IMG/VR virus record: IMGVR_UViG_2675903578_000012
Reading direction: 5' to 3' (one strand)
Origin: a virus
Lineage: Duplodnaviria; Heunggongvirae; Uroviricota; Caudoviricetes
Length of the DNA stretch: 5,688 bases
Position 1 is the stretch's first letter, and every line of letters begins with the position of its first letter. Below the pieces are notes generated by a model, which made no database searches, was not told the origin of the DNA, and saw only the letters and a list, made by a program, of their open reading frames with translations. Positions 1 through 5,688 of this stretch are shown here, one piece after another. The position numbers were made by a program, and so were the translations under genes.

Positions 1-35
1 GAACAGGAGGGACAGCTGATAGAAACAGAAGCCAC
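1..35 (-). CDS. insA: IS1 InsA, N-terminal 11 codons only (partial, runs off the window)
   Basis: Minus-strand GTG at 35..33 is followed by GCT TCT GTT TCT ATC AGC TGT CCC TCC TGT, giving (M)ASVSISCPSC, the known InsA N-terminus. The rest of the gene lies outside the window. Confidence 0.7.
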   Translation of the reverse strand, partial: MASVSISCPSC

Positions 36-90
36 TGGAGCACCTCAAAAACACCATCATACACTAAATCAGTAAGTTGGCAGCATCACC
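1..90 (-). mobile_element. IS1 insertion sequence, left end only (terminal inverted repeat plus insA 5' region); element continues beyond the window start
   Basis: The reverse complement of 1..90 reads GGTGATGCTGCCAACTTACTGATTTAGTGTATGATGGTGTTTTTGAGGTGCTCCAGTGGCTTCTGTTTCTATCAGCTGTCCCTCCTGTTC. I recognise this as the canonical first ~90 bp of IS1, with the terminal inverted repeat GGTGATGCTGCCAACTTACTGAT at window 68..90. Identity stops at position 91/92. Recognition is from memory of the IS1 sequence, not a database search. Confidence 0.85.
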
Positions 91-91
91 C

Positions 92-202
92 CGCCACAGA
101 ACAATTATTGCTTTTGCCGTTGATGACAATAAAGTTTTTATCGCAGGCGTATACCACGGTGGGCAAATCTATGAAACCGATTTTTTATCCAGTGCACCGT
201 AA
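92..202 (+). pseudogene. 3' remnant of a RelE/ParE-superfamily-like toxin gene, apparently truncated by the IS1 insertion (36 codons plus TAA)
   Basis: The frame starting at 92 translates to RHRTIIAFAVDDNKVFIAGVYHGGQIYETDFLSSAP, with TAA at 200..202. The pattern (basic, hydrophobic run, V-D-D-x-K-V-F-I-x-x-V-x-H) resembles the C-terminal strand/His region of RelE/StbE/YoeB-type toxins. There is no start codon: the frame runs into the IS1 end at 90 and meets a stop inside IS1 at 65..67. The family call is by eye and tentative. Confidence 0.3.
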
Positions 203-242: not shown

Positions 243-1325
243 TCATTTTCTCTGGCTGATCTTTACCGGATAACCATCCCGAAGATCAATTAAGTGCTCC
301 GGTTCAGAAGCAAACCATGCATAAGATCCCCACGCCAATTCTGGTATTGCCTTTTTAAAAGGCAGAGCACTTCTGTCCATAAATGCCGTAAGGAATGCAA
401 GATTTTTCTCGCTGAACCCAGCGTCAATAGCCAAATGAGTGAGAGTAACTTTTCGTTCCCTGTTTATAGGCCCATCTGTCGCAACTACTTCAGTGAAAAC
501 TACAAGCATGTCCGAACCCGTTCGGTCCTCTCCCAAATCAATCAAAATAATATCTGGAAGTGCTTTTGAGGCATCAATATTCAGCCCCAATGCTTTTGCC
601 AATACATCATCCTGAGCAACAACTTTATTCCCGGATTCAGACAACCAGAGCACAGTTGGATTCTTAAGAAAATTAGGAGCAAAAACTTCGATGACGGCCT
701 TAGCTATTGTACTTGACGGGCCCGGAGCTAAAGTTCTCTTCTCTCCATTTGGGAAAGTGACGACTACGGCATCAGCAGCAATCACTGCCCCTGATTTCAA
801 TAAACGCAACCTAGCAAGAGCGGCTTTGTTCAAATGATTTTCTTGCCAGGAACTTATTGCACTCAGCAGCGAATCTCCTTCAAGCCCGGCATCAAAGAGT
901 GCTGCAAAAGAGCGATTCAAACTGTAACGAGGACGAGAGGATGTGGTGGGTATACCTTTACGCTCAACAATTGCATTGCAAGGTATTAGGCCATTTTTTA
1001 TAGTTTCATCACGTATTGGCTCACGCGTATTTTCCGCATACCATGCATCAGCAGGCCTTATCTTTTGTTTAGAGAAAGTCATCTTTACCCAGCTTTCTCT
1101 GGACGCATCATCAGTAAGAGCAGCCTGCGAATCTCCCATACTTACAACCTGGCTGGGCCTTATCCATCGCCCCAGCCCCTCAACCGCACCAGCATAAAAC
1201 ATGACAAAAATTGTTTTTGCAGCTATTTCCCGAATTAAATATCCACGATTCTCAGTCCCTTCAGGGAAAATTAATTGTAATCTTTCCCGGATAACATTCA
1301 ATGGGGGAACAACAGGCAGATTCAT
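243..1325 (-). CDS. Putative Type II restriction endonuclease (360 aa), possibly BsuBI/PstI-like; R subunit of an M-R operon
   Basis: A 1083-nt minus-strand ORF with ATG at 1325..1323 and TGA at 245..243. Its ATG overlaps the methyltransferase stop as ATGA, and a GGAG Shine-Dalgarno lies about 9 nt upstream inside the methyltransferase 3' end. The role is inferred mainly from this coupling to an N6-adenine methyltransferase; I could not pin down a clean PD-(D/E)xK motif by eye. The BsuBI/PstI family suggestion rests on recollection that this family is commonly paired with Eco57I/PstI-type methyltransferases, and is unverified. Confidence 0.6.
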   Translation of the reverse strand: MNLPVVPPLNVIRERLQLIFPEGTENRGYLIREIAAKTIFVMFYAGAVEGLGRWIRPSQVVSMGDSQAALTDDASRESWVKMTFSKQKIRPADAWYAENTREPIRDETIKNGLIPCNAIVERKGIPTTSSRPRYSLNRSFAALFDAGLEGDSLLSAISSWQENHLNKAALARLRLLKSGAVIAADAVVVTFPNGEKRTLAPGPSSTIAKAVIEVFAPNFLKNPTVLWLSESGNKVVAQDDVLAKALGLNIDASKALPDIILIDLGEDRTGSDMLVVFTEVVATDGPINRERKVTLTHLAIDAGFSEKNLAFLTAFMDRSALPFKKAIPELAWGSYAWFASEPEHLIDLRDGYPVKISQRK

Positions 1326-3217
1326 GCAATCATCACTCCATAGAAACCAGCGATAGTTCTCTCAATAATCCGTCTGTGGACGCCAGCATCAATTAACGAT
1401 TGAATCTCCATCACCTGCTCCAGAGAAGGCAACGGGATTGAATTCAATTCATAGGCCGAAACAGCAACACTTCCGCTTATACACCTGAACGCCCGATCGA
1501 CAACATGCGAATTAAGTAGCATATCAATAACATCAGGGCGAACCGCAGAGANNNNNNNNNNNNNNNNNNNNNNNNNNNNNNNNNNNNNNNNNNNNNNNNN
1601 NNNNNNNNNNNNNNNNNNNNNNNNNNNNNNNNNNNNNNNNNNNNNNNNNNNNNNNNNNNNNNNNNNNNNNNNNNNNNNNNNNNNNNNNNNNNNNNNNNNN
1701 NNNNNNNNNNNNNNNNNNNNNNNNNNNNNNNNNNNNNNNNNNNNNNNNNNNNNNNNNNNNNNNNNNNNNNNNNNNNNNNNNNNNNNNNNNNNNNNNNNNN
1801 NNNNNNNATGATTTTTTCTGTCTGCACTAAAACGAAAACCAGCTGAAGTTATTGATTCCGCCCAGACTAATGGGTAGCTATTTTTTCCTTTCGTCGTACG
1901 CAACTGCGACTTAAATCGATTCCAGACTAACTGACCTGTAGAGACTGAGTATCCCAGATCAGCTAAACGCGTAGACATCTGTTTTAATACATTAAGAAAA
2001 CAGGCATCATCTTTAACGCGTGGCAAAAGCCACGTTGCTCCACCTTTTTCTATATCAACATTACCTATTTTCTCAATTTTTGCTTTGTTCAACCCCTTAG
2101 GGACAAGTGAGGATACCTGGGCCCGAACTTTATGTTCTCCCGCCTTGAATGCTGTCAACATTGTTTCCTGGAGAACATCGTCAAAGACCCCATCCCTGTC
2201 AGTGACGAAATCAAGGGCATACGGAGTAGTTTTTTCGGTCAAAAGGGTTCGCAGCGCGGTGAAATACTGCCCACCAAGAAAAGAAGTTGGCGTAAGAAAT
2301 GCAATAACTCCTGTTTTCTCTTTAACCATGCGAACAGCTAAGTCGGTGAACAATCCATATAGATTTGCATGACCAAATAACGAACGAGAATATTTTTCTC
2401 TCGTTTTAATATCGAGAGTGACACGTCCGTAAGGCGGATTCCCTACCACAAGATCATAACCAGAAAATTTATCTTGCTGAAGCGCATCAGCAACAATAAT
2501 TGTATCTTCAGGCAATCTACGTTTTACCTTTACACATAGTGGCATTAGTACAGATTCGAGCAATACCAAACTCATCCAAGCCGCAAATGGATCGATCTCT
2601 ATCCCCTTTAAACGACGACTGATTCTCCTCAACATCCATTCAGGGGAAGACCCCTTGTCTTTTTTTAACATTCGAATGGCTACTGGTGCCAAAAATGCAC
2701 CGCCACCACACGCAGGATCAATAACCGATGCATGAGAAAAATCAACACCAGACTTTTCAGCCAGGTCCAAGAGACGCGCTACCAAAGGTGGGGGGGTATA
2801 GTAAGCCCCCAATTCCGAACGGTAAGCGGATGGCAGCATTACCGTATAAATTGACCCAATCAGATATCCAGCGTCCTCCGCCGGAAATTGAGCAATAAGC
2901 TCACCTGTTCGTTCAGCGAGCTCGCGTGCATCACATGGAATGTCTTCTATGTAAACAGTGTGCGGTACTGCCCTCATTTTAATGCTGCTTTTTTGCTTTT
3001 TTGCAAGGGTATCCCAATATGCAGCTACGATGCTGAAGCAGTATGAGCGGGCATGCATCAACCTTGACTGCCCGGTTTTGTAATTGCCCGCATAACCTTT
3101 GGCCATGGCTTTACAAGTTTGATATCTTTCCAGATTAGAAAACTCATTATCTGTAAAAAAATCAAAATGTTGCACATTCATAATGTAAAATCCTAATGTA
3201 TCAAACATGCGGGCCAT
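1322..3217 (-). CDS. N6-adenine DNA methyltransferase, gamma class (Eco57I/PstI/TaqI-like); M subunit; CDS spans an assembly gap, so true length is unknown
   Basis: The translated ORF contains GAYYTPPPLV (motif X-like), IDPACGGGAFL (motif I, SAM binding) and VVGNPPYGR (motif IV, the NPPY catalytic motif of amino-methyltransferases). The order X, I, IV followed by a C-terminal target-recognition region defines the gamma class. The start is ambiguous: ATG at 3217 is the longest with a weak RBS, ATG at 3208 is an alternative, and ATG at 3187 has an AGGA about 9 nt upstream. The stop TGA at 1324..1322 overlaps the R start. The frame across the N run cannot be verified. Confidence 0.8.
   Translation of the reverse strand: MARMFDTLGFYIMNVQHFDFFTDNEFSNLERYQTCKAMAKGYAGNYKTGQSRLMHARSYCFSIVAAYWDTLAKKQKSSIKMRAVPHTVYIEDIPCDARELAERTGELIAQFPAEDAGYLIGSIYTVMLPSAYRSELGAYYTPPPLVARLLDLAEKSGVDFSHASVIDPACGGGAFLAPVAIRMLKKDKGSSPEWMLRRISRRLKGIEIDPFAAWMSLVLLESVLMPLCVKVKRRLPEDTIIVADALQQDKFSGYDLVVGNPPYGRVTLDIKTREKYSRSLFGHANLYGLFTDLAVRMVKEKTGVIAFLTPTSFLGGQYFTALRTLLTEKTTPYALDFVTDRDGVFDDVLQETMLTAFKAGEHKVRAQVSSLVPKGLNKAKIEKIGNVDIEKGGATWLLPRVKDDACFLNVLKQMSTRLADLGYSVSTGQLVWNRFKSQLRTTKGKNSYPLVWAESITSAGFRFSADRKNHXXXXXXXXXXXXXXXXXXXXXXXXXXXXXXXXXXXXXXXXXXXXXXXXXXXXXXXXXXXXXXXXXXXXXXXXXXXXXXXXXXXXXXSAVRPDVIDMLLNSHVVDRAFRCISGSVAVSAYELNSIPLPSLEQVMEIQSLIDAGVHRRIIERTIAGFYGVMIA
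1552..1807. other. Assembly gap (256 N) inside the methyltransferase C-terminal / target-recognition region
   Basis: An uninterrupted run of n from 1552 to 1807. The X runs in the ORF track, and the minus-strand ORF 1477..1827, are artefacts of translating through it. Confidence 0.99.
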
Positions 3218-3431
3218 AACATCTCATGGTGGCGCATAGCAAACTGGCCCGAAGAATATCACGCACCAAGTCGATCTCATAACCCGTTATGACAATAAAT
3301 CTTTGTAGCTGAACTCACTTGGTGATTTGTCAATCATTCCTGGCCTCCAGTTCGTCCTGAATCTCTTTATCGAGTTCACCGTATTTGTTAGTCCTCATCA
3401 CTCACGACTTGACTTCCAGAAATAACCTTGA
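3218..3431 (-). promoter_or_regulatory. About 214-bp intergenic region upstream of the R-M operon; presumed location of the methyltransferase promoter or operator
   Basis: This is the only sizeable non-coding stretch between tightly packed minus-strand genes. It contains a 7-2-7 inverted repeat, TCATAAC-CC-GTTATGA, at 3277..3292. No convincing sigma70 -35/-10 pair could be fixed by eye: a consensus TTGACA on the minus strand at 3333..3328 lacks a matching -10 at 16-19 bp spacing. Confidence 0.3.
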
Positions 3432-3788
3432 TTATTCGGGGCTATATTTTGTCACCCTGCGTATCCGCGCTTTCGCATTACGCTCAATCTGGATTAGCTT
3501 TTCTATATTTTTTCGCCTTTCCCGCTCCTCCTGGCGCAAGAGCCTTACATCATCTGCCAGTCTGGTTTCTCTTTTCGCCACAGAGAGCATCCAGTCAAAT
3601 GGCTCCACAACTGCACCGCAAATTTTACAGCGGACCTGACGCTCTTTTTCGTCAACCCGGACAGAAGCGTGATGGCAATATGGTCTTTCCGATGGCTCAT
3701 AAAGAAAATTAACCTGATTACGAGGGTTATCCTCTTTTACCGGAAATAAAACAATATTGCTTAACTCATCTTCTGGTTTTATTTCCAT
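3432..3788 (-). CDS. Hypothetical phage protein (118 aa) with a zinc-ribbon-like C-x-HH ... C-x2-C motif and a basic, coiled C-terminus
   Basis: ATG at 3788..3786 is preceded by AAGGAG with a 6-nt spacer. The protein begins MEIKPEDEL and contains PYCHHASVRVDEKERQVRCKICGAV, then an Arg/Glu-rich tail. The ORF track's longer version starts at GTG 3845, directly after the upstream stop; this is possible but the ATG has the better RBS. Stop TAA at 3434..3432. Confidence 0.6.
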   Translation of the reverse strand: MEIKPEDELSNIVLFPVKEDNPRNQVNFLYEPSERPYCHHASVRVDEKERQVRCKICGAVVEPFDWMLSVAKRETRLADDVRLLRQEERERRKNIEKLIQIERNAKARIRRVTKYSPE

Positions 3789-3845
3789 GCTCCTCTCCTT
3801 TGATGCGAATGCCAGCGGTAATTGAAGCCTGATAGCTAATTTCAC

Positions 3846-4268
3846 TCACAGTACCGCCTCCTGAAAATCACCCTGATAGAAAGCCGGTACACGCTGCATA
3901 ACTTCACTCTTCCGGCACTCGCGACAGATTATGTTCTGATGTCTGTCGTAGCGGCGTATTTCTCCGTCCGGTAATGACCAGATAAGGTCCGGATCAACCA
4001 CAGATGGTTTCTTCAGCTTTGCCCTCGAGAGTTTTTTGCGGGCGTTTTGCCAGTCCTTACGAGCCTGTTCAGACGGGAATAACCCGTAGCCAGAGTTGTA
4101 TACATCCCCACTGGCAACCAGCTCTCTGGCGAGAACGCTTATTAAATATCTTGTCGCCCCGGTTTTAGCTTCCAGTTGTCGTAACGTCTCGCGCCCACTC
4201 TGGCGTACGAGTTCAACAACCTGCCCCTTAATTTTTTCCCGCTCTTCCTGTGTAAATACTTTTGCCAT
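3846..4268 (-). CDS. Hypothetical phage protein (140 aa) with one CxxC pair near the C-terminus
   Basis: ATG at 4268..4266 (MAKVFTQEEREKIKG...) lies 15 nt downstream of the upstream gene's stop, preceded by a weak G-rich RBS (GGGGG). The TTG at 4283 used by the track is probably an over-extension. The protein contains ICRECRKS. Stop TGA at 3848..3846. Confidence 0.6.
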   Translation of the reverse strand: MAKVFTQEEREKIKGQVVELVRQSGRETLRQLEAKTGATRYLISVLARELVASGDVYNSGYGLFPSEQARKDWQNARKKLSRAKLKKPSVVDPDLIWSLPDGEIRRYDRHQNIICRECRKSEVMQRVPAFYQGDFQEAVL

Positions 4269-4283
4269 AAGCGCCCCCGGCAA

Positions 4284-5009
4284 TCACTTTTCCGACACAA
4301 TACGACCGGAGGAATCGACAATCTGTCGAACAATATCCCGGTGCTTGTTCAGCTCCCGCAACGCGGCGCAGACACGCTCCCACTTCTGGACATGACTTTT
4401 CGCCCGACGCAGTTCGCGGTTTGCCATATGCAGCGATGGTAAAACCAGGTCATCCGCTTGCGTTTCGGTGAACGATGGCAACGACTGCACAATGTCCGCC
4501 ACAGTTTCTGTTTTAATTTCTTCCTGTGTTGCAGCTTCCTGTACCGGTAACGCAACACCTGCTGGCTGAGGAAAGACTTTACCATCCGTTTCCGCTATGG
4601 ATGCGGCTTTCGGCTCTGCCGGTAAATCAGCGCCCGGTATGCAGTACCGAAATTTACCGCCCTGATTCACGCGAATCAGACGCCCTTTGCTGATTGCCAT
4701 GGCCAGCGATGAATTCGCCCGGCGGGAGGTAATCCCGAACATCAGTGCCAGCTCATCCGCCGTTTGTGGGCCATGTTGTTCAATCGCCTCAGTCAGCATT
4801 TGCGCTGTCACTTTCGGTACCGGTGACACTGGTTCACTTTCACCAGCCTGAATCAGCCACCACATCGAACCCTTGTTATCCGCTTCACCACGGCGCTTCA
4901 GTTTCCACAGTTCGTTGACCGCATCTTCACGGCTGATTCCAAGGCGGGACGCCACCACATGTGAAGAGGCTCTTTTCAGTGCTTTCAGTGCGTCAAATAC
5001 AGTTTCCAT
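4284..5009 (-). CDS. Phage hypothetical protein (241 aa), apparently two winged-helix-like modules followed by an acidic linker and a basic C-terminal helix; of the kind found just downstream of dnaC-like genes in enterobacterial lambdoid prophages
   Basis: ATG at 5009..5007 ([13 protein letters not shown]...) is preceded by GGAGG with an 8-nt spacer. The TTG at 5027 in the ORF track is an over-extension. Segments such as [20 protein letters not shown] and [23 protein letters not shown] look like HTH/wing elements; the fold call is by eye. Stop TGA at 4286..4284. Confidence 0.7.
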
Positions 5010-5030
5010 TAAAACATCCTCCAACAAAAA

Positions 5031-5688
5031 TTACTTCACAACTCCCGGAAAGCTGACATTTGAACGCCAGCTATCCCAGTTAAACGTCACCCACCGACAA
5101 CCGTTCATGGTCATGCGGTCCATAATCCTCTCACCAAGAAGCGTGCTCATTGCGGCATGATTCAGGTTTGTTAACATCCCGACACTGCACAGTGATGCTG
5201 TCCGGCGATCAATTATCTGGTGCAATACCACCTGCTCGTTTTTCGTCTCCCGCTGAATGCCTATTTCATCCAGGACCAGCAAATCAACCCCGCAAAGCTC
5301 CTGTAAAAATTTTTCACCGGATTTGCCGTTGTCGTAGCTGTCATGCAACACGCTCATGACATCAGACTCGGTGACGATAATCACGCTGCGCCCCTTCGCC
5401 ATCAGCCGGTTACCCATCGCCGCTGCAAGGTGATTTTTCCCGGTGCCGGTTTTACCGCTGAACACAAAATTCGTGCACCCGGTCATCAGTTCGTCAGCTA
5501 TGGATTTGGCCTGGCTCAGCGCGTATTTTTGCCCGTCGTTCTGCACCTGATAATTCGCAAACGAGCATTTGCTGTGCAGAGGCTGGATGCCCGAACGATT
5601 CAGGATTTTTTCCACCCGCAACTGGCGATTCTGGCGGTTAATCTCCTCGCTGCGTTTTCGTCCTTCAGCAAGTTGCCATTCCCGCCAC
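5031..5688 (-). CDS. DnaC-like replicative helicase loader (phage replication protein, AAA+ ATPase), 5'-partial; the N-terminus lies beyond the window end
   Basis: The protein shows Walker A FSGKTGTGKNHLAAAMG and Walker B LLVLDEIG. LNRSGIQPLHSKCSFANY closely parallels the E. coli DnaC segment FNRSGIRPLHQNCSFENY, and the C-terminus FNWDSWRS matches DnaC FNWDSYRS. The frame stays open from 5621 to 5688 (reading ...WREWQLAEGRKRSEEINRQNRQL-RVEKIL...), so the track's TTG start at 5621 is internal. Stop TAA at 5033..5031. Confidence 0.9.
   Translation of the reverse strand, partial: WREWQLAEGRKRSEEINRQNRQLRVEKILNRSGIQPLHSKCSFANYQVQNDGQKYALSQAKSIADELMTGCTNFVFSGKTGTGKNHLAAAMGNRLMAKGRSVIIVTESDVMSVLHDSYDNGKSGEKFLQELCGVDLLVLDEIGIQRETKNEQVVLHQIIDRRTASLCSVGMLTNLNHAAMSTLLGERIMDRMTMNGCRWVTFNWDSWRSNVSFPGVVK

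Follow-up and report, generated by a model that had tools for sequence, protein, structure and literature searches.

A regulator-free, prophage-borne restriction–modification operon of Shigella sonnei in which the methyltransferase and endonuclease genes overlap

To judge from its sequence, the Type II restriction–modification (RM) system that is nearly universal in Shigella sonnei is a prophage-borne operon of the BsuBI/PstI family without a dedicated regulator. We analysed it in a stretch of 5,688 nucleotides of viral DNA (IMG/VR record IMGVR_UViG_2675903578_000012), named the window throughout, where the methyltransferase gene (M) runs into the endonuclease gene (R), the stop codon of the former overlapping the start codon of the latter (Table 1). 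This juxtaposition is a rule of the family: it is a real feature, and an ordinary one. The account that we hold to be rather probable is that of a conventional bicistronic Type IIP operon, M then R, carried as prophage cargo, co-transcribed, and coupled by translational reinitiation with no regulator of its own.

Table 1. Position of the features discussed in the text, numbered along the window
Feature	Position	Strand	Basis or remark
IS1 element end, replacing the rest of the prophage	1..90		Thousands of E. coli records match it as IS1
parE (RelE/ParE) toxin gene, 3' remnant	77..202	+	Convergent with R; truncated by IS1
R gene, BsuBI/PstI-family Type II restriction endonuclease (assigned)	243..1325	-	360 aa; ORF, Pfam, PADLOC, SdaI structure
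ATGA, R start over M stop, -4 spacing	1322..1325	-	Sequence; PGAP in L001 and L002
GGAG, Shine-Dalgarno-like motif for R	1336..1339	-	10-nt spacer to ATG
M gene, gamma-class N6-adenine DNA methyltransferase (assigned)	1322..3181	-	598 aa with true sequence in place of the N-run; Pfam, PADLOC, motifs
Run of N inside M (gap or mask)	1551..1797		Exceeds the real sequence by 63 nt
12-codon stretch, in frame with M in the window	3182..3217	-	Relatives: out of frame or interrupted (short upstream ORF)
SD-like TAGGAT of ATG 3181, the conserved M start	3190..3195	-	Invariant in 8/8 aligned relatives, Serratia and K. africana among them
Cassette leader, conserved	3182..3291	-	83-96% identity, six enterobacterial genera; beyond 3291 unrelated among them
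Candidate cassette promoter (predicted)	3253..3282	-	Extended -10 TGaTATTCT 3261..3253; weak -35 TTATGA 3282..3277
Non-conserved spacer, phage gene to leader	3292..3431	-	ORFs of at most 32 aa only
Upstream phage gene, 118 aa	3432..3788	-	Prophage backbone, outside the RM cassette; start 3788 per PGAP and other callers

Both proteins are readily placed. R combines an N-terminal, helix-turn-helix (HTH) domain, BsuBI_PstI_RE_N (1.2e-30, 106.6 bits), with a C-terminal catalytic one, BsuBI_PstI_RE (9.3e-45, 152.2 bits), both above the Pfam cut-off of 27 bits that applies to each, and it matches the PADLOC profile REase_II at 2.8e-128; this is the layout of the BsuBI/PstI-family Type II restriction endonucleases, to which we assign it. 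PstI and BsuBI themselves, founders of the Pfam family, display the same R domains (PF17728 and PF06616) and have an adenine methyltransferase as partner. The PstI genes are divergently transcribed, and hence lack an M–R overlap. The closest solved structure is that of SdaI (PDB 2ixs), aligned over residues 96-349 of R (E = 1.8e-16); SdaI recognises an 8-bp site, and the comparison, which covers R only, is silent on operon control. M matches Eco57I and N6_Mtase in Pfam, MTase_II in PADLOC (1.2e-298, protein residues 1-596 lying on profile positions 8-602 of 604) and the M.TaqI structures (3e-08). Its translation contains AYYTPPP, DPACGGGAF and NPPY (within GNPPYG) one after the other, the X-I-IV order of the gamma class, which identifies it as a gamma-class N6-adenine DNA methyltransferase. 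Its N-terminus is a helical bundle devoid of HTH, and we discarded autoregulation of the SsoII, Ecl18kI, EcoRII or MspI type, where M bears a promoter-binding N-terminal HTH extension. Values of dN/dS of 0.05-0.09, for M and R alike, point to strong purifying selection on both.

The limits of M differ from those first proposed. The annotated start, at 3217, was that of the sequence-only reading; the conserved one is ATG 3181, and the annotation is thus probably 12 codons (36 nt) too far upstream. The intervening stretch is most likely leader rather than M, because relatives have it out of frame or interrupted: Kluyvera and Klebsiella lack 1 nt, which creates a 12-codon upstream ORF (uORF) ending in the TGA of an ATGA at the M start, while in Salmonella and Logan loci the ATG has become ATA and a TAG stands in frame. 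In S. sonnei and Citrobacter the uORF and M form one continuous frame; in Salmonella only 4 codons of the uORF are left. Inside the gene, a locus that is 100% identical on both sides of the N-run (L083) has 193 nt where the window has 256. Because the run is 63 nt too long, and with the start at 3181, M is 598 aa long (610 aa from 3217) instead of the 631 first listed; its homologues have 593-598 aa.

At the M/R junction the minus strand reads ...ttctatGGAGtgatgattgcATGAatctg..., with the R start ATG at 1325..1323 and the M stop TGA at 1324..1322, an overlap of 4 nt. The ATGA overlap (1325..1322) and the GGAG within the end of M (1339..1336), both put forward from the sequence alone, are therefore present as described. 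Near its C-terminus M has a conserved Tyr-Gly, the codons of which (TAT GGA G) supply the GGAG. Upstream of R an in-frame stop comes before ATG 1325, the first start codon, so that the ORF list allows no alternative start on the 5' side. A downstream start, which would have abolished the overlap, is excluded because the next in-frame methionine, M42, sits within the conserved domain; the N-terminus is moreover kept from residue 1-3 onward across 24 homologues, and ATG 1325 stands. An identical overlap of 4 nt is annotated by NCBI PGAP in two cassette-bearing E. coli genomes (L001 and L002), and gene callers give it in 10 more contigs.

A lone NTGA overlap would be unremarkable, because no other spacing is as common between prokaryotic genes of the same orientation (PMC12548453). 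A single case thus tells no more than chance; it is the persistence over the family that is non-random. M lies directly 5' of R in 80/80 related bacterial loci, and stop and start overlap in 56 of these (70%), by NTGA in 31/80 and by 1 nt in 25/80. All but two of the non-overlapping loci have an M–R spacing within about 40 nt, the range among relatives being -41 to +37, with a 1-nt gap in K. africana. NTGA is also found in 26 of 30 related viral contigs. A Shine-Dalgarno (SD)-like motif is present at 40/71 homologous junctions vs 22% at control positions, a 2.6-fold enrichment, and 'tatGGAGt' is invariant among enterobacterial relatives despite saturated synonymous sites.

A distant but characterised system shares this arrangement. 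EcoGIII (M.EcoGIII/R.EcoGIII, CTGCAG), from the Stx2 prophages of E. coli O104:H4, O145 and O103, also associates a BsuBI/PstI-family R with an N6-adenine M on a prophage. There too M precedes R, the ATGA by which they overlap is of 4 nt (GGAG-N10-ATGA), and the annotated genes nearby include no C; its methylation and nuclease activities are on record (PMC3893438). It differs by its sequence (R proteins only about 27% identical), by its lengths (M 489 vs 598 aa, R 317 vs 360 aa in the window) and by its location, adjoining cI in the immunity region, whereas the window cassette is downstream of replication genes. Cfr9I, like the present system a Type II system without C protein, controls R expression at translation, by a hairpin that limits access to the REase start site (Lubys et al. 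1994, Gene 141:85, as cited in PMC12707154); such a hairpin is not predicted at the window junction, and the Cfr9I proteins are unrelated to those studied here. In PvuII too the start codon of R overlaps the stop codon of the preceding gene, which contains the SD for R, but that preceding gene is the controller, C, and not M. As for specificity, we rejected ATGCAT, suggested via a Salmonella prophage-borne methylase: that enzyme is a beta-class, different protein, common to all serovars, and the 4 ATGCAT sites of the window are within chance. A literature search for an S. sonnei methylome found no report.

The gene neighbourhood indicates that M–R is a cargo cassette of about 3.2 kb, carried by a lambdoid prophage (Rac/Qin-like) in its early-right region. 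In S. sonnei IS1 has cut this prophage down to a remnant typical of the species. On the upstream side, homology to RM-free prophages stops at 3417-3428, and the 118-aa gene adjoins LygF/DUF977 in phages and prophages without RM; this gene has a weak Pfam match, Zn_Ribbon_TF, below the cut-off, and no match in PADLOC or NCBIfam. On the other side, three loci (L001, L002 and L086) have an intact parE-parD where the window has its parE remnant, homology ending at window position 91, while in L083 R is followed by IS1 insA/insB, then by ydfI-like chromosomal genes.

The sequence-only reading had also noted the absence of a controller gene upstream of M, and this holds: the longest ORF in 3218..3431, of 32 aa, is on the plus strand, followed by three of 30, 23 and 22 aa on the minus strand, the 30-aa ORF 5' of M has no Pfam match, and close relatives (Kluyvera, Citrobacter, Klebsiella, Salmonella, Serratia) have no small regulator there, their upstream genes being different and a leader of about 110 nt common to them. 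The region concerned is no longer 214 nt but 250 nt long with M starting at 3181; it lacks, as stated, any C-sized HTH ORF. Flanking-ORF clustering over 80 loci brought out a small ribbon-helix-helix gene directly 5' of M in 8/80, all distant relatives, and a Pfam census of upstream ORFs (99, taken from 68 distinct loci, all distant) has no XRE-type HTH among its top families. A hidden C gene (an XRE-type HTH gene of about 70-100 aa by R) appears in neither the ORF listing, the clustering nor the census, and was rejected. Lack of a C protein is the rule across the family, not a peculiarity of this cassette.

What lies upstream of M is a leader 83-96% identical between genera whose neighbouring genes differ at synonymous sites by 0.55-0.62. 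The candidate promoter, within its invariant block, is the best match of a crude, lenient sigma-70 scoring of 3169..3458, its -35 overlapping a GATC at 3276..3273; a stricter scan retained none in the leader, with fewer matches overall than expected from shuffles. This conservation might reflect a regulator other than C or a cis-acting switch, working through the state of Dam methylation, through a factor of phage or host, or as a relay from uORF to M to R. The leader does contain an ATGAGAT repeat and a GATC where the -35 lies, as well as a short uORF next to the start of M, which in Kluyvera and Klebsiella takes the ATGA form already described, and the ribbon-helix-helix gene of distant relatives suggests regulation by a small DNA-binding protein within the family. 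Yet GATC, repeat and uORF are not kept in Serratia or K. africana, the uORF is elsewhere fused or reduced to a few codons, and ordinary promoter and 5'UTR constraint would explain the conservation, all of which makes a switch improbable. Structured leader RNA was dropped, the RNAalifold consensus reaching -3.99 kcal/mol with an unfavourable covariation term. Nor does the leader hold a 6- or 8-bp palindrome, or the window any CTGCAG, that would suggest control by own-site promoter methylation of the CfrBI type. Very improbable, in our opinion, is the stronger proposal that the leader is a new cis device, with a Dam-site extended -10 promoter and a uORF–M–R relay metering the nuclease without any protein, GGAG-N10-NTGA being selected and ancient in BsuBI/PstI-family operons.

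Whether R is translated by ribosomes coming from M is a more delicate matter. A stop/start overlap, here conserved across the family, is expected of a coupled gene pair, and termination–reinitiation coupling of M and R is plausible. The sequence-only reading went further, with an overlap that forces R translation to depend on that of M: the layout is there, but the obligation does not follow, R having its own SD and an unmasked junction. The junction RNA is less structured than its shuffles (-23 vs -27.8 kcal/mol, z = +1.45), the mean unpaired probability of the R initiation region in the window, 0.44, is that of the coding-region background, and across 71 homologous junctions it is 0.454 vs 0.421 in controls (p = 0.055). 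No stable conserved stem hiding the SD or start of R was found in the window or in these 71 junctions, and masking by a hairpin, for which several folding windows gave weak, inconsistent folds, was rejected. A natural case of frameshifted M with intact R (L085) was also set aside, as neighbouring genes of the same assembly are frameshifted too, probably by sequencing error.

With its own SD, an unstructured junction and background-level accessibility, R may thus be initiated de novo, and the overlap may be mere compact packing of an operon in which R, on a shared transcript, is translated from its GGAG independently of M. The start codon already gives three of the four bases of NTGA, the abundance of which has been put down to ease of evolution (PMC12548453); SD-like motifs are enriched at homologous junctions, relatives tolerate other spacings, and the PvuII C and R genes overlap while experiment shows them to be translated independently (PMC2997769). 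We nevertheless find this account rather doubtful: 13 of 14 natural overlapping gene pairs from E. coli and Haloferax were strictly coupled even with SD motifs (PMC6728339), overlap is retained in most of 80 diverged loci, and accessibility in the R initiation region does not exceed the coding-sequence mean. It is also conceivable that the S. sonnei system is no working RM at all, R being silent or inactive and M an orphan methylase in a dead prophage, with a functionless junction. The prophage is an IS1-cut remnant, and database entries include an R allele with a frameshift (P0002) and M called in pieces (L085), but these variants are single contigs or come from assemblies full of other frameshifts, whereas the exact 360-aa R is found on at least 1000 contigs and in 4192 collection blocks, dN/dS is about 0.05, and a 2026 survey of 994 S. 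sonnei genomes arrived at 982 Type II systems (PMC13293514); the chance that the system is dead is very slim indeed.

In the reinitiation-coupled operon that we favour, one mRNA for M and R would start from the cassette-borne candidate promoter, some 70 nt 5' of ATG 3181, with extra read-through into M–R from the phage early promoter during induction. Ribosomes ending M at UGA would reinitiate on the overlapping AUG, assisted by the in-gene GGAG, and R output would in this way be tied to that of M, probably remaining below it. Methylation before restriction in a new host, which the sequence-only reading expected from coupling, does not follow: coupling makes R proportional to M and creates by itself no time delay. 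A naive host might rather be protected by a fixed, M-biased ratio together with the contrast between a monomeric methyltransferase and a dimeric nuclease, no dedicated regulator being needed; it is a general property that methyltransferases act as monomers whereas Type IIP nucleases must dimerise (PMC12707154).

The operon has little significance beyond bookkeeping, the practical gains being an M start corrected to 3181 and defined cassette limits. The family conserves its M–R stop/start juxtaposition, and the characterised EcoGIII has it too. Reviews deal only briefly with RM control at translation; if coupling is true, this operon would be a clean and widespread case of an RM system controlled by translation and assembly, with no regulator.

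The restriction-modification pair of the window belongs to a catalogued Type II family and has an ordinary, family-wide operon layout; what the sequence-only reading observed is confirmed, and its interpretation is partly supported. The endonuclease (R) carries both Pfam domains of the BsuBI/PstI family, matches PADLOC REase_II over its full length and also matches the SdaI structure, while the methyltransferase (M) shows the gamma-class motif order, matches Pfam N6_Mtase and Eco57I and, over its full length, PADLOC MTase_II, with M.TaqI as nearest structure. Purifying selection on both genes is strong: in comparisons with the Kluyvera, Klebsiella and Serratia orthologues, at dS above 1, dN/dS is 0.05-0.09. 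One PADLOC profile, PDLC03359 (840 positions, MTase_II), is matched by both M (28-257) and R (595-831), implying that M and R are fused into one polypeptide in some relatives. Two broken alleles, a frameshifted R (P0002) diverging after residue 325, at an A-run, on one short contig, and an M split into 133 + 428 aa adjoining an intact R (locus L085:6209-8004), are both probably errors, because the L085 assembly is frameshifted in several neighbouring genes.

The genes of interest are all encoded on the minus strand, and the M-R pair is a phage cargo cassette. In phages and prophages that share the flanking genes without the pair, homology stops at window positions 3417-3428 and resumes at 188, the slot being filled by unrelated small genes. 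Orthologous pairs (R 81-89% identical) sit in the same lambdoid prophage slot, downstream of the replication genes and ahead of DinI, RusA, DUF968 and Q, in Kluyvera, Citrobacter, Klebsiella and Salmonella; a Serratia pair lies within a P2-like prophage, that of K. africana within a defence island, and relatives are encoded on 31 IMG/VR viral contigs. The 118-aa gene (3432..3788) is part of the phage backbone. Its mechanical ORF (3432..3845, minus) gives 137 aa from GTG 3845, while it is annotated elsewhere from ATG 3788, preceded by aaGGAGaGGAGc; the product ends in a basic helix.

Features of the window and of the leader of the cassette
Feature	Position	Strand	Remark
DnaC/IstB-like loader	5621..5031	minus	
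DUF1627 gene	5027..4284	minus	
DUF977/LygF gene	4283..3846	minus	
118-aa gene	3788..3432	minus	weak zinc-ribbon match
Untranslated stretch	between 118-aa gene and M	minus	
Weak -35 of candidate promoter	3282..3277	minus	prediction
ATGAGAT repeat, two copies	3280..3274 and 3227..3221	minus	
GATC in putative -35 region	3276..3273	minus	
Best promoter candidate, extended -10 TGaTATTCT	3261..3253	minus	prediction
M, methyltransferase	3' of untranslated stretch, before R	minus	
R, endonuclease	1325..243	minus	
parE toxin gene, 3' remnant	77..202	plus	cut by IS1 end
IS1 element end	about 1..90		

A 4.8-Mb chromosome (L083) is 100% identical to the window and continues through IS1 into ydfI-, ydfZ-, ydfH-, ydfG- and dcp-like chromosomal genes. 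The exact R protein is present on at least 1000 contigs, under an NCBI name referring to Shigella sonnei or Enterobacteriaceae, and, of 5426 complete E. coli genomes, just 2 carry the cassette. In a 2026 survey of 994 S. sonnei genomes, 982 Type II systems were found (PMC13293514), a figure compatible with this pair being the standard Type II system of that species. IS1 (window 1..202; L083:9084-10000) truncates the convergent parE and replaces parD together with the entire prophage late region, the ydfI-like genes coming directly after it; parDE is intact in both E. coli copies of the cassette (L001, L002) and at locus L086.

On the minus strand the junction reads ...ttctatGGAGtgatgattgcATGAatctg..., where the M stop TGA (1324..1322) and the R start ATG (1325..1323) overlap by 4 nt, and GGAG (1339..1336) precedes that ATG with a spacer of 10 nt. 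The same overlap appears in the annotations of PGAP and of other gene callers, which bears out the ATGA arrangement with GGAG inside the end of M that had been read from sequence. The R start, ATG 1325, is the first start codon of its frame and is not in doubt, because the alignments with 24 homologues (354-382 aa) begin at residue 2 or 3; they support it over a downstream ATG clear of M. Promoter-like matches on the plus strand at 976..1004 (antisense to R) and 1341..1369 (antisense to the M 3' end) are probably due to chance, the regional total being below shuffle expectation.

Comparison with 80 loci from species-representative genomes (R 51-68% identical) finds M directly 5' of R, on the same strand, in every case. 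The stop/start overlap is NTGA at 31 loci and a single base (TGATG, TAATG or TAGTG) at 25; R starts 0-4 nt 3' of the M stop at nine, the genes overlap by 8-41 nt at 13, and just two show gaps of 13-34 nt. NTGA is also found in 26 of 30 viral contigs. Enterobacterial relatives retain TAT GGA GT. (Tyr-Gly-Val), followed by three further codons and then NTGA, despite saturated synonymous sites. An SD-like motif stands before 40 of the 71 distinct junctions, compared with 22% of control positions within M. EcoGIII, the characterised phage-borne system recognizing CTGCAG, has an R only about 27% identical to ours and an operon lying directly 3' of cI, on its strand, yet displays GGAG-N10-ATGA too (L093:3280-3330, phage phiON-2011). 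Shared by genome loci, viral contigs and EcoGIII, the overlap is thus the ancestral layout of this RM family, with nothing peculiar to this locus.

Does the overlap force R translation to follow that of M, as had been proposed? NTGA and TGATG pairs are classic substrates of termination-reinitiation. Strict coupling was found in 13 of 14 natural pairs tested (PMC6728339). Against forced dependence stand the Shine-Dalgarno sequence that R possesses in its own right and the precedent of PvuII, whose C and R genes overlap but, by experiment, are translated independently of each other (PMC2997769). A masking hairpin over the R ribosome-binding site, of the kind cited for Cfr9I in PMC12707154, would enforce such dependence, but none is predicted here: the 121-nt junction RNA folds worse than its shuffles (-23 against -27.8 kcal/mol, z = +1.45), its predicted structures shift with the stretch chosen, and accessibility equals background, the mean unpaired probability from SD to AUG being 0.44, as at random positions inside M, with likewise no difference over 71 homologous junctions (0.454 against 0.421). 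Hence the M-then-R architecture and the lack of a C protein stand, while obligatory coupling could not be shown and its temporal logic is unproven. Coupling, if real, would tie R output to M output without in itself delaying R. Safe establishment is usually ascribed to methyltransferases being active as monomers and nucleases only as dimers (PMC12707154), an argument that might also apply to this pair.

The M start had been placed at 3217, and here the earlier reading needs correction: it is probably ATG 3181 (598 aa), the 610 aa of PGAP being 12 codons too long. Homologues at 58-89% identity nearly all measure 593-598 aa and align from MNVQHF; position 8 of the PADLOC profile aligns to residue 1 of the 598-aa form; TAGGAT, 9 nt 5' of ATG 3181, is invariant across eight relatives. 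The 36 nt from 3217 to 3181 bear indels that break the frame in Kluyvera and Klebsiella, and ATG changed to ATA plus an in-frame TAG in Salmonella and Logan loci. In the first two genera these 12 codons stand apart as a uORF, and its TGA shares bases with the M ATG to make another ATGA. The N-run at 1551..1797 overstates the real sequence by 63 nt (193 nt in the identical L083 genome where the window has 256), so that any ORF length counted across it is off by 21 codons.

The absence of a C protein is upheld by the ORF listing of 3218..3431 (22-32 aa only, no C gene), by the flanks of M-R in close relatives, with no conserved small gene, and by a Pfam census covering 68 distinct distant loci (99 upstream ORFs), in which the HTH domains were of resolvases or transposases only. 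Eight of the 80 distant loci (L035, L045, L050, L055, L056, L058, L061, L071) carry, on the M strand, an ORF of about 65 aa directly 5' of M. It lies about 130 nt ahead of the first base aligned to M, has weak, sub-threshold matches to RHH_3 (E = 0.001) and RHH_1, and may act as a non-classical controller within this subclade.

Finally, some 110 nt 5' of ATG 3181 (3182..3291, minus) travel with the cassette. This leader, which includes the variable uORF, is 83-96% identical across six enterobacterial genera, against 55-62% difference at synonymous sites, and the sequence 5' of it is unrelated among them. A strict scan found no promoter in it, no RNA structure was supported, 3182..3291 holds no 6-bp or 8-bp palindrome, and CTGCAG is absent from the whole window. 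An internal promoter would nevertheless be expected, since a repressed or dead prophage that retains an intact R must still express M. In a system otherwise so ordinary, this strongly conserved leader is the one feature that still offers some novelty.
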